Positions 51,612 through 54,728 of a stretch of DNA of 60,541 nt are shown in pieces. Location of the stretch: contig JAKSOL010000018.1 in assembly GCA_024405635.1 (NCBI GenBank), positions 1 through 60,541 on the forward strand, given 5' to 3'. The stretch comes from Salinivirgaceae bacterium (GTDB taxonomy: Bacteria > Bacteroidota > Bacteroidia > Bacteroidales > SZUA-534). The first letter of the stretch is position 1. Each line of letters opens with the position of its first letter. The notes under the pieces are model-generated. The model saw only the letters and a list, made by a program, of their open reading frames with translations, made no database searches and was not told where the DNA came from. The translations under genes and the position numbers were made by a program.

Positions 51612-52826
51612 TTATTTGTAGTTGCCATAGGCATCGGCTACAATTAGAATGGTATTGTTAATTTTTTCAGATTTTTCGTTTACGCGTGGCATAAATACTT
51701 TGCCAACAAGAGCAATGCTTCCGTTTTTCATTTCAACTGCAGCTTGCAAGTCAGAACTTGAAGTAAAGTTGTAATCAAAGTCAGAGTCTGGTTTGTCGCT
51801 CGACTCCAAAGTTTTGTGAGTTTGAACTGAAAGTTGTTCGTCAAGAATAACATACGAGCCTTTTGTAACAACTTGGCGAGCGTCAACATAAAAGCACGAA
51901 CCAAACAACAAAAGTTTTTTCGACGACAACCATATAATGCCGTTAGCGCTAAAGTCGTTTATGCTTGATGATGAGCGAACGTCACCATTTGGATTTAGTC
52001 GGCTTACTTTGGTTTGTGATGTTCCAACGGCATTTTTAGCATGGCAAATGTGGAAAATTTCGCCTTGTGGGTTCACTGTTATGCTTTGGGTGTAAAAGTT
52101 TGCTGGCATATCAAATCCGCTCTTTTTCCACAATACAGTTCCATCGGCTGTTGTTTTGTATATCACTGGTACATACTCGTTAGCACGAGTGTCGCTATAT
52201 TTTTTACCAGCAATAATCACATCACCTTTAGCGTCAACCACCATAGCATCGGCCGATTCGTTGGTTTCGCTCGACACTTTTTTAATCCAAAGTTGGTTGC
52301 CTGTAGCATCAACACAAGCAAGTGTTATGCAGTTTTCGCCTTTCGATGTTTCGGTAACCAATTGCAAAATTTGGTTATCGTTCTTTTTGTAGGTAGAAAT
52401 TAAAATAAACGAACTTTCGTGAGCTCCAGTAACCTCGCCAAGTTTGTTTAAACTGGCTGATAGTTGTAGTGTGTAGTTTTCAAGTTTATCGGTTTCGATG
52501 CTTGAAAAAACACTCACTTTGCCGTCTGCTGAAGTAGTTGCGCCTACAACGTCATACAAATTTTCAACAGGATAAAGGCGCTCAAGTGTACGCACTCCCT
52601 CTTTGTTCATTCCAATAAGTTGAATGGCATGGTTGCGGTAGCGCAAATCAGAACATTTGGAAACAACTAACAACGAGTTGTCGGGTTGCGCAATAACATT
52701 TGATACTTTAGTGTTGATGTATGTAGCATCGGTGTTTACGTAGTATGAAATGCCACGTTGTTGAGCATTTGCTGTAAAGAACATTGATGCGCAAAGCGCT
52801 GATGCTAAAACGATTCTGAGTTTCAT
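51612..52826 (-). CDS. Hypothetical secreted protein, beta-propeller-like repeats
   Basis: Signal peptide (ANA-Q); repeats such as DATGNQLW, DAKGDVIIAG, TADGTVLW; TATATTTG promoter motif at 52854-52861 (-). Confidence 0.75.
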   Translation of the reverse strand: MKLRIVLASALCASMFFTANAQQRGISYYVNTDATYINTKVSNVIAQPDNSLLVVSKCSDLRYRNHAIQLIGMNKEGVRTLERLYPVENLYDVVGATTSADGKVSVFSSIETDKLENYTLQLSASLNKLGEVTGAHESSFILISTYKKNDNQILQLVTETSKGENCITLACVDATGNQLWIKKVSSETNESADAMVVDAKGDVIIAGKKYSDTRANEYVPVIYKTTADGTVLWKKSGFDMPANFYTQSITVNPQGEIFHICHAKNAVGTSQTKVSRLNPNGDVRSSSSINDFSANGIIWLSSKKLLLFGSCFYVDARQVVTKGSYVILDEQLSVQTHKTLESSDKPDSDFDYNFTSSSDLQAAVEMKNGSIALVGKVFMPRVNEKSEKINNTILIVADAYGNYK

Positions 52827-53054
52827 ATTCAATTAACTTTTTTTAACAATCGGCAAATATAGAAAATCTAAAAGTTTTGAGACCTATTTTTTATGTAGCG
52901 TAGCTTTTTTGGCGAGTTGGTTTAGCAAGTTCAAAATATATGAGCAAATTATTTAGCCATCGTTGTGGGAACAATGCCTTAATTATCAAACTTGATTATT
53001 AACTACAATAAACAAGAAAATGAGAGGAGCAGTTTTGTCATTAGGTAAAAATTG

Positions 53055-53062
53055 TATCTTCG
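53055..53062 (+). promoter_or_regulatory. Putative -7 element of rplY-pth
   Basis: TATCTTCG(C), one mismatch to TAnnTTTG. Confidence 0.6.
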
Positions 53063-53087
53063 CGCCGCAAAATTTTTATTGTCTAAC

Positions 53088-53118
53088 GTGTGATGGGTGA
53101 CTATGTCACAAGTAGCAC
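53088..53118 (+). ncRNA. Candidate L25 autoregulatory leader hairpin (5S rRNA loop E mimic)
   Basis: GTGT-GATGG-GTGAC-TAT-GTCAC-AAGTA-GCAC; internal loop GAUGG/AAGUA compared with 5S loop E GAUGG/GAGUA; ends 15 nt before the rplY ATG. Confidence 0.6.
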
Positions 53119-53133
53119 ATAATTTATGTAGAA

Positions 53134-53709
53134 ATGAAAACTGTAGAAGTTAAAGCATCAGTTCGTAAAGAATTGGGCAAAAAAGCAACTCGTGCTTTGA
53201 GAGCAGAAGGTAAAGTTCCTTGCTCGTTGTATGGTGGCGAATCGGCACAATCAATCGCAGTGCCAGTTGAGTCTTTCCGCGCTTTGATCTACACTCCAGA
53301 CATCTGCACAGTTAATCTTGATGTTGATGGCAAAGTGTGCAAAGCTATCTTGAAAGATGTTCAATACCATCCAGTAACTGACGAAATTGAGCACGTTGAT
53401 TTCCTTGAGGTTAGCGACTCAAAACCAGTTGTTATGTCAGTACCAGTTGTTTTGAACGGTTTGGCTGATGGTGTTAAAAAAGGTGGTAAGCTTGTTCTTA
53501 AGCTTCGCAAAATCAAAACCAAAGGTTTGATTAACGCTATCCCAGACACTCTTGACATCGACGTTACCTCTCTTGACCTTGGTAAGTCAGTTAAAATTCA
53601 AGACCTTAACTATGAAGGACTTGAACTTATGGAGGCTAAAAACGTTGTTGTTTGCACCGTTAAATTGACTCGTAACGCTATTTCAGCTGCTCAAGCTGCA
53701 AACAAGTAA
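53134..53709 (+). CDS. rplY: 50S ribosomal protein L25/Ctc (bL25)
   Basis: GKKATRALR, VPCSLYG, VQYHPV...HVDF, GVKKGGKL. Confidence 0.96.
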   Translation: MKTVEVKASVRKELGKKATRALRAEGKVPCSLYGGESAQSIAVPVESFRALIYTPDICTVNLDVDGKVCKAILKDVQYHPVTDEIEHVDFLEVSDSKPVVMSVPVVLNGLADGVKKGGKLVLKLRKIKTKGLINAIPDTLDIDVTSLDLGKSVKIQDLNYEGLELMEAKNVVVCTVKLTRNAISAAQAANK

Positions 53710-53720
53710 TTTAACTGCAA

Positions 53721-54284
53721 GTGAAATATCTGATTGTTGGCTTGGGTAATATAGGCGACGAGTACGCCGAAACCCGACATAACATAGGATTTAAAGTATT
53801 GGACGCCTTGGCTAAGGCGTCCAATATTTCTTTTTATGAAGATCGTCGCGCTTTTCGTGCCGAACTAAAACACAAAGGCCGCACGCTTATTCTTATTAAG
53901 CCTACAACTTATATGAATCTTAGCGGCAAAGCTGTTGCTTATTGGATGCAACAAGAAAAAATTCCTCTTGAAAATCTTTTAATTATTGCCGACGATTTGG
54001 CTCTTCCGTTTGGCAAAATTCGCATTCGAGCTAAAGGTAGCGAGGGCGGACACAATGGTTTGAAGAGCATTACCGAATCGCTTTCAACTCAAGATTATGC
54101 GCGCCTGCGTTTTGGTGTGGGCAACGATTTTGCTCGTGGCAAGCAAGTTGATTATGTGTTAGGCGAGTGGAGCGATGAGGAAAAAGCGCAAATTGACGAC
54201 CGCATCAAAGTTTGTACTGGTGCTATTTTGTCGTTCCCATTCGTTGGCATAACTGGCATCATGAACCAGTTCAATAACAAGTAG
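53721..54284 (+). CDS. pth: Peptidyl-tRNA hydrolase
   Basis: LIVGLGN, TRHNIGF, KPTTYMNLSG, GGHNGLKS; GTG start. Confidence 0.96.
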   Translation: MKYLIVGLGNIGDEYAETRHNIGFKVLDALAKASNISFYEDRRAFRAELKHKGRTLILIKPTTYMNLSGKAVAYWMQQEKIPLENLLIIADDLALPFGKIRIRAKGSEGGHNGLKSITESLSTQDYARLRFGVGNDFARGKQVDYVLGEWSDEEKAQIDDRIKVCTGAILSFPFVGITGIMNQFNNK

Positions 54285-54308: not shown

Positions 54309-54728
54309 GGCTCTTCATAAAAATGCGTAGATAGCATCAAATAAAGAAGCCGGTCAAAACGTTTATAATGTACCACCAAAAGTAAACGTTATGCAGACCT
54401 AGCCACATCATACTATCTGAAAGAAGAACTGCGCAGGGTGTGGAACCAGGCTGACAAAGAATCTGCCACGACCATCCTGCACAATTGGGTCAATGAGGCC
54501 CGTGAATCCGGAATAAAGAATATGAAGAAGCTTGCCGACACGATAGATCTGCACAGGGACGGTATCTTGGCCTACTACGACTATAGGATTTCCAGTGGGA
54601 AGGTCGACGGTGTCAACAATAAGATCAAGACCATCAAACGGCAGGCGTATGGCTTCCGTGATGACAAGTATTTCATGCTGCGCATCCTTTCGATGCATGA
54701 CGACATCTATGCAAAATTATGATGAACC
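54309..54728 (+). mobile_element. 420-bp internally deleted ISL3-family element
   Basis: IRL GGCTCTTCATAAAAATGCGTAGAT; IRR ATCTATGCAAAATTATGATGAACC (18/24 complementary); contains the transposase C-terminus. Confidence 0.9.
54391..54722 (+). pseudogene. ISL3 transposase remnant (start codon plus out-of-frame C-terminal about 108 codons)
   Basis: DLATSYYLKEELRRVW...ISSGKVDGVNNKIKTIKRQAYGFRD matches the ISL3 C-terminal motif; ATG at 54391 reads MQT-stop. Confidence 0.88.

Follow-up and report, generated by a model that had tools for sequence, protein, structure and literature searches.

A candidate order-restricted leader of rplY-pth in Bacteroidales with partial likeness to 5S rRNA loop E

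Described L25 leaders and the rplY-pth hairpin

Feedback by ribosomal protein L25 (bL25) has a precedent in Escherichia coli, where L25 represses its own translation (Aseev, Bylinkina and Boni, 2015, PMC4408793; here and below, statements on cited papers apply to the portions of each that are drawn on). The E. coli hairpin, HII, is described in that paper as without resemblance to loop E of 5S rRNA, and repression is argued to be a competition with the 30S subunit. A 2024 review finds features of L25 control only in species with a short L25 (PMC10931766), and in Table 1 of Eckert and Weinberg (2020, PMC7247131) the leaders of Bacteroidia are those of L13 and S4 only, while L25 is listed only for Enterobacteria. 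Loop E, the bL25 site of 5S rRNA, is composed of seven non-Watson-Crick pairs around a central G75-A101 pair (PMC1976436) and contains bifurcated G.U pairs (PMC6617799). Here, we describe the 5' untranslated region (5' UTR) of the rplY-pth genes in a stretch of 60,541 nt from a Salinivirgaceae bacterium of the order Bacteroidales (GenBank assembly GCA_024405635.1, contig JAKSOL010000018.1, positions 1 to 60,541, forward strand), the whole of which is called the window. This region holds a hairpin whose internal loop carries the letters of one half of loop E, and which is a candidate for an undescribed, order-restricted ribosomal-protein leader.

The hairpin occupies 31 nt at 53088-53118, between a promoter-like box and rplY, and reads GUGU-GAUGG-GUGAC-UAU-GUCAC-AAGUA-GCAC. 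Its parts are as follows (5S refers to 5S rRNA of related genomes; the A4 alignment is described below).

53088-53091, forward strand: basal stem, 5' arm GUGU, partner of 53115-53118
53092-53096, forward strand: loop-E-like internal loop, 5' strand GAUGG, equal to RAUGG of the relatives' 5S loop E
53097-53109, forward strand: apical stem-loop GUGAC-UAU-GUCAC, all five pairs covarying, 13-69 nt among relatives
53110-53114, forward strand: loop-E-like internal loop, 3' strand AAGUA, where the relatives' 5S has GAGUA
53115-53118, forward strand: basal stem, 3' arm GCAC, from the sequence, RNAfold and the A4 alignment

A preliminary description of this DNA, made from its letters, had proposed this hairpin, and both the letters and the fold agree with it exactly: the minimum free energy structure given by RNAfold for 53086-53120 is the same hairpin (-11.6 kcal/mol, z-score -1.84, with 9 of 200 shuffled sequences equally good). 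Within the 78-nt leader it is the sole stable structure, and the leader as a whole (z-score -0.58) has no significant remainder. The energy model treats the A.U and U.G oppositions of the loop as ordinary pairs, and the reading as a 5x5 loop of the loop E kind is an analogy. The internal loop is symmetric, without a bulge and without tandem G.A pairs. A kink-turn, by definition, has tandem sheared G.A pairs beside a 3-nt bulge, and a sarcin-ricin motif is an asymmetric AGUA/GAA loop with a bulged G; the leader loop is thus neither. No open reading frame (ORF) of at least 50 aa overlaps with the hairpin on either strand in the ORF list of the window. A loose pattern for the hairpin has 2 matches in the window where 0.56 are expected. 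The significance of the hairpin comes from its conservation, covariation and genome-wide specificity, rather than from single-sequence energy.

Conservation, covariation and specificity

A six-frame search with the L25 of the window returned the gene in 40 of 41 related genomes. Of the 30 relatives' loci returned, 29 have the hairpin design within the 130 nt before rplY, among them all 25 from the family of the window. The common design has a basal stem GUGY/RCAC, an internal loop of RAUGG over NRGUA, and an apical stem with compensatory substitutions, which is far longer in four loci of other families. For the order as a whole, a sample of 151 genomes from about 148 families (roughly one per family, rplY being present in 147) was searched with a strict pattern, GTGYRATGRN{12,42}RGTARCAC, and with the reversed pattern as a control. 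There were 89 matches to the strict pattern, of which 66 lie just upstream of rplY and on its strand; the remaining 23 approximate the 21 matches of the reversed-pattern control (a sum counted by hand).

Inspection by eye of 40 of the 81 pattern-negative upstream regions revealed 13 with variants (12 of them complete) and 27 without the motif. These variants carry basal covariants (GCGU/GCGC, GGGU/GCCC, GCGC/GCGU and GGCGG/CCGCC) or apical inserts longer than 42 nt. In locus L052 only the 3' half was seen by eye, and covariance model R2 later matched it across a long apical insert. R2 took the place of a model built from the family of the window only (R1), which was too narrow, as it found 9 of 151 order genomes and missed loci that are motif-positive by eye. 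In total, the element precedes rplY in at least 81 of the 147 rplY-bearing genomes (66 by strict pattern, 10 by R2 and 5 by eye), a lower bound, as R2 recovered only G095, G134 and G152 among the 41 pattern-negative regions outside the initial inspection. The preliminary description had named conservation of the internal loop in relatives as a check, and these family and order counts bear it out.

Both stems that flank the loop covary, which had been named as a further check. At the family level (alignment A1, 18 sequences) 100% of cells are paired and 4 of 9 pairs have changed on both sides. In the model-aligned sets these figures are 99.3% and 6 of 9 (A3, 68 sequences) and 98.8% and 6 of 9, with 113 such cells (A4, 94 sequences); A3 and A4 were fitted to the structure of the model, which favours that structure, and the sequences are related. 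None of 500 shuffles of A4 reaches the real alignment on any of five measures, and controls in which the 3' partners were slid by 1-3 columns have 15-67% of cells paired. Of the 94 sequences in A4, the first basal pair is GC in 93 (one gap or N), the second is UA in 90, CG in 3 and GC in 1, the third is GC in all 94, and the closing basal pair is UG in 47, UA in 34, CG in 7 and other in 6. In the apical stem, all five loop-adjacent pairs change on both sides, with 3-5 standard pair types each.

The element is likewise specific within genomes. In the 2.66-Mb assembly to which the window belongs, a family-level covariance model has a single match at E<=10. Across the 151 order genomes, R2 yields 75 matches (E<=0.1), each in a different genome. 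All but two of them, 73, immediately precede rplY and share its strand; the two exceptions are a weak match elsewhere (E 0.027) and a match at the end of a contig, from a genome in which the sequence upstream of rplY is masked. It is scarcely credible, then, that the hairpin is a chance fold or neutral family-level sequence conservation. The z-score of -1.84 and a loose pattern that is not rare in one window are what such an account can call upon, but against it stand the compensatory changes that both stems show over about 80 families, the single rplY match per genome, and the failure of shuffled and slid controls. As found for ribosomal-protein leaders, the element is a structured RNA directly 5' of a ribosomal-protein gene, has compensatory changes, and resembles the rRNA site of the encoded protein, a likeness that is common in such leaders though not a requirement.

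Likeness to 5S rRNA loop E and a proposed feedback

No 5S gene was found in the assembly of the window, and the comparison was made with 5S rRNA of its relatives. Eight 5S genes from relatives read CC-RAUGGUA-CUGC...GUGG-GAGAGUA-GG, and the RAUGGUA/GAGAGUA pattern of loop E is present in 64 of the 151 order genomes, with no control matches. Among 80 distinct hairpins, the 5' loop strand is GAUGG in 54, AAUGG in 22 and other in 4, while the 3' strand is GAGUA in 42, AAGUA in 16, AGGUA in 11 and UAGUA in 11. The first opposition is G.A in 56 and A.A in 24, the second and third are A.U and U.G in all 80, and the fourth is G.A in 69 and G.G in 11. The invariance at oppositions 2 and 3 is partly by construction, because the finder required loop words and mostly paired stems; the relatives' loci, collected with no loop-word requirement, have the same invariance. 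The leader loop consensus, GAUGG/GAGUA, equals five consecutive pairs of loop E on its helix-V side, in the same register. For the hairpin of the window, the proposed match of 9 of 10 loop letters in register is confirmed against the relatives' 5S. The claim of loop E mimicry stands in that five pairs are copied in register, but it has to be narrowed to five of the seven pairs of loop E. Compared with full bacterial loop E, the leader has one half, the central pair and one further opposition only, and its other half is Watson-Crick or G.U paired. The alternation of G and A at the first loop position also occurs in 5S, where A is present in 7 of 64 genomes.

The likeness leads to a reading in which the leader is a feedback operator for bL25. 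The genes and signals involved are as follows.

53034-53037, forward strand: TTTG, possible -33 promoter element, 17 nt ahead of the -7-like box
53055-53062, forward strand: -7-like box TATCTTCG, TAnnTTTG with one mismatch, 25 nt upstream of the hairpin
53067-53070, forward strand: probable transcription start region; one end of a 271-nt contig (RNA run X2) is at 53070
53119-53133, forward strand: linker to the start codon, AUAAUUUAUGUAGAA, 15 nt, A/U-rich (87% A+U)
53134-53709, forward strand: rplY, two-domain bL25 of 191 aa (Pfam PF01386, 1.8e-25; PF14693, 5.5e-20)
53721-54284, forward strand: pth, peptidyl-tRNA hydrolase (Pfam PF01195, 6.4e-64), starting 11 nt past the rplY stop

The putative promoter of the preliminary description is upheld in that its box at 53055-53062 is one letter off TAnnTTTG and an exact box is upstream in most motif loci: in 81 of 89 motif-bearing loci, TAnnTTTG occurs 9-41 nt before the first stem base. 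The TTTG at 53034-53037 may be the -33 element, going by the Bacteroides -33/-7 consensus. Two metatranscriptome libraries gave contigs at 53070-53340 and 53109-53739, with one mismatch each, while none of 3 RNA-library runs has any depth at 52850-53066. These contigs are consistent with a start just past the box and with a hairpin inside the mRNA, though they are not proof of a transcription start, and RNA libraries may carry DNA contamination. As to a start downstream of 53088, which had been raised as a check, the contigs extend to 53070, upstream of the hairpin. The pth gene is probably co-transcribed with rplY, as the contig of run X1 (53109-53739) spans the junction. The rplY product combines an N-domain (Ribosomal_L25p) with a C-domain (Ribosomal_TL5_C), and the solved chains nearest to it are bL25 of the ribosome entries 9i5t and 7jil.

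In the proposed mechanism, transcription would start a few bases past the -7 box and the hairpin would form about 20 nt into the transcript. Its internal loop would reproduce the helix-V half of loop E (R.A, A.U, U.G, G.R, G.N), so that bL25 in excess over free 5S rRNA could bind the hairpin as a decoy, with 5S rRNA competing for bL25. With its end about 15 nt from the AUG, the hairpin reaches into an A/U-rich stretch that would be used for non-Shine-Dalgarno ribosome loading, and bound bL25 would block entry of the 30S subunit and lower translation of rplY and, probably, of pth. Binding, repression and competition by 5S are what we infer from the position, conservation and loop letters of the element. 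We give a probability of roughly 0.7 to this reading, namely that the rplY-pth 5' UTR leader is a bL25 feedback operator that acts through partial mimicry of loop E by blocking 30S loading. In its wider form, an order-wide Bacteroidales leader by which a two-domain bL25 shuts rplY-pth through a five-pair copy of half of loop E, it is favoured as well, if more guardedly.

The position of the hairpin bears on the step that would be controlled. In 80 of 89 loci, 12-22 nt separate the end of the hairpin from the first open ATG; A+U content averages 88% over the 13 nt 3' of the hairpin (89 loci). Some ribosomal-protein leaders of other phyla use attenuation, and bL25 or another factor could act on transcription (attenuation or Rho) instead of translation initiation. 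This is very improbable, however, as the window has no terminator-like site from the hairpin to the ATG; the 12-22-nt linker is too short for a terminator, and the fixed distance to the AUG points to initiation.

It is doubtful, though less so than the other alternatives, that this is a conserved structured leader with a job unrelated to bL25, such as a stabilising 5' hairpin, an RNase site, or a site for another protein or RNA. Structure and conservation are observed while the ligand is inferred, R2 sees no overall likeness to 5S, and modules of the loop E type recur in many RNAs. On the other hand, the element is present once per genome and before rplY only, its ten loop letters are those of the bL25 site of 5S in register, and a generic stabiliser would have no need for invariant A.U and U.G oppositions (80 of 80).

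A further alternative, an unlikely one, keeps bL25 as the ligand but flips the register: the GUA/RA half would be the helix-IV side, the GUG/CAC basal stem a surrogate of helix IV, and the apical stem a clamp. Loop E is nearly two-fold symmetric, although this argument is built on assumed pair geometries, which counts against it. The basal stem (GC 93/94, UA 90/94, GC 94/94) is far more conserved than the covarying apical stem, the strand of the relatives' 5S helix IV that leads into loop E is GUGG or GCGG where the leader has GUGY, and L25 contacts the junction of loop E and helix IV (PMC1976436). However, the flipped register matches 5S at only about 6 of 10 loop letters, against 10 of 10 for the direct one, and the 5S helix IV strand is not invariant, being GCGG in many genomes.

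Several observations weigh against the bL25 operator as proposed. The folding energy of the hairpin is unremarkable, and energy or a one-window pattern alone would be within chance. Opposition 5 is variable (G.G 42, G.A 27, G.U 7, A.U 3 and U.U 1 of 80). The first letter of the leader loop does not track that of 5S, as it is A in 2 of 5 genomes with A in 5S and in 10 of 45 with G (small numbers, counted by hand). The two helix-IV-side pairs of loop E are replaced in the leader by G.U or G-C and by A-U, and R2 gives no match to 5S genes, so the likeness is local and limited to ten loop letters. An amino group of L25 is reported to bind near U80, in helix IV (PMC1976436), and in the direct register a part of the natural contact surface may thus be missing. 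In vitro, no shift of the E. coli L25 mRNA was produced by the purified protein (PMC4408793), so feedback by L25 may involve more than a simple two-part interaction. Lastly, the element was not found in 66 of the 147 order genomes (45%), where for 39 of the 66 the screen consisted of the pattern and R2 only, nor in essentially all other orders, which makes it dispensable.

Distribution, context and comparison with known systems

The preliminary description had placed the leader in Bacteroidota. A real and conserved rplY leader was indeed found, but it is confined to one order rather than spread over the phylum. Upstream of rplY in 51 further families of the class, all read by eye, there is no such hairpin, and rplY there almost always comes directly after prs (at least 38 of the 51 by a simple peptide test). 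With filters off, R2 scores only one of these regions, L128 of genome G181 from another order (16.9 bits, E 0.006). This locus, GUU-GAUGG...GAGUA-AAC, was set aside as isolated and unproven, as its family relative G229 has nothing similar. Two weak R2 matches (E 0.004 and 0.03) among 146 genomes of the phylum outside the order were rejected as well, being neither near L25 nor motif-folding. Matches of the strict pattern outside the order, among 301 genomes of the class, are without stems and resemble chance or conserved coding sequence (they were not each compared with rplY). In four genomes of other orders (G240, G439, G328 and G436), the pattern matches a near-identical 39-nt stretch that looks like conserved coding sequence rather than an RNA motif. 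Among 23 loci from public records, 4 carry the motif (two Salinivirgaceae metagenome-assembled genomes (MAGs), one "Bacteroidetes HGW-4" MAG and one Bacteroidales MAG), and it was not found in those of Flavobacteriales and other Bacteroidia.

Within the order, rplY begins 16-81 nt behind prs in 22 of the 27 motif-negative loci inspected, and these loci lack a promoter box. In several motif-positive loci prs precedes rplY as well, but here the two genes are separated by 90-141 nt, and both TAnnTTTG and the hairpin lie in this spacer. The leader thus appears to accompany a promoter placed between prs and rplY. Loci L055, L056 and L082, from three families of the order, have TAnnTTTG between prs and rplY and a 36-40-nt leader with no hairpin; in these families the element was either lost or never gained. 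In L060 (G109:C71:3565-3703), a 5S rRNA gene with a visible loop E/helix IV sequence has its 3' end about 70 nt ahead of rplY; between the two genes there is a hairpin with a T-run behind it, and no leader hairpin.

The encoded bL25 proteins vary as well. Their N-termini come in two flavours, mostly MKTxExKG... in leader-bearing loci and mostly MKTVSxSGS... directly after prs (L051-L090 and L121-L171), which may reflect co-evolution of the protein with the leader or merely two clades. In G044:C34:37663-38295 and G129:C6:7874-8512, the L25 match is split into residues 1-37 and 39-187, about 78 nt apart in a stop-free frame, and the same is probably so in G051, G103 and G158. Loci with a split L25 keep the leader. 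The split points to about 26 aa having been inserted in frame in the bL25 N-domain of several families.

In the window, the divergent upstream gene (51612-52832, reverse strand) encodes 406 aa with a signal-peptide-like N-terminus and has no Pfam family above threshold. Just downstream of pth, a 94-aa ORF (54438-54722, forward strand) is a transposase remnant, which matches only the C-terminal third of an ISL3 transposase profile (PF01610, positions 158-240 of 240, E 1.3e-25).

With respect to novelty, no Rfam 15 family matches the leader hairpin, a check that had been proposed beforehand: the only match in the window at the gathering threshold is a tRNA, and at E<=10 the region 52830-53250 has five weak matches far below thresholds, none of them relevant. 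The main text of a B. thetaiotaomicron transcriptome paper makes no mention of rplY or L25 (PMC7366714). A literature search returned no L25 leader outside Gammaproteobacteria; supplements and subscription journals were outside its scope, and a prior description is possible.

That ribosomal proteins are controlled by feedback through mimics of rRNA is a classic idea, but the only studied operator of L25, that of E. coli, has no likeness to loop E and no L25 binding in vitro. If the feedback reading is true, the Bacteroidales element would be the first clear case of rRNA mimicry by an L25 operator, and L25 feedback would reach beyond the gammaproteobacteria with short L25. It would also define a minimal RNA determinant for bL25, possibly in flipped orientation with the GUG/CAC stem as helix IV. 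At 31 nt, it is a small and phylogenetically well-sampled test case for feedback through an rRNA look-alike. Bacteroidales include genetically tractable gut bacteria that initiate translation without Shine-Dalgarno pairing, and the element could reveal how a repressor acts on such initiation, which features of loop E are needed by bL25, and whether pth is tied to ribosome assembly.

Among known systems, the leader is like the L13 and S4 leader candidates of Bacteroidia (PMC7247131) in being a narrow, lineage-specific hairpin upstream of a ribosomal-protein gene, which was found by comparison and whose presumed ligand is the encoded protein. The S4 motif of Bacteroidia, in the portion of that paper drawn on, is without likeness to rRNA, whereas the rplY leader has one. 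With loop E and helix IV of 5S, the leader shares RAUGG over GAGUA in the same register and next to a helix, but 5S has seven non-Watson-Crick pairs where the leader has five, and the flanking helices differ in sequence. Like the gammaproteobacterial rplY leader, it is a 5' UTR hairpin just upstream of the ribosome binding site, and its proposed function, negative feedback of L25 on translation, is that of the E. coli element (PMC4408793). The E. coli element, on the other hand, depends on a Shine-Dalgarno-like sequence, the atypical GAGA(G), and has been reported, in the portions drawn on, only with short, one-domain L25 (PMC4408793; PMC10931766). The leader described here belongs to another phylum, precedes a two-domain L25, has no GAGAG (the motif is not present in the linker of the window), and has a loop that copies 5S loop E. 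The Bacteroidales element and the gammaproteobacterial L25 leader are not homologous.
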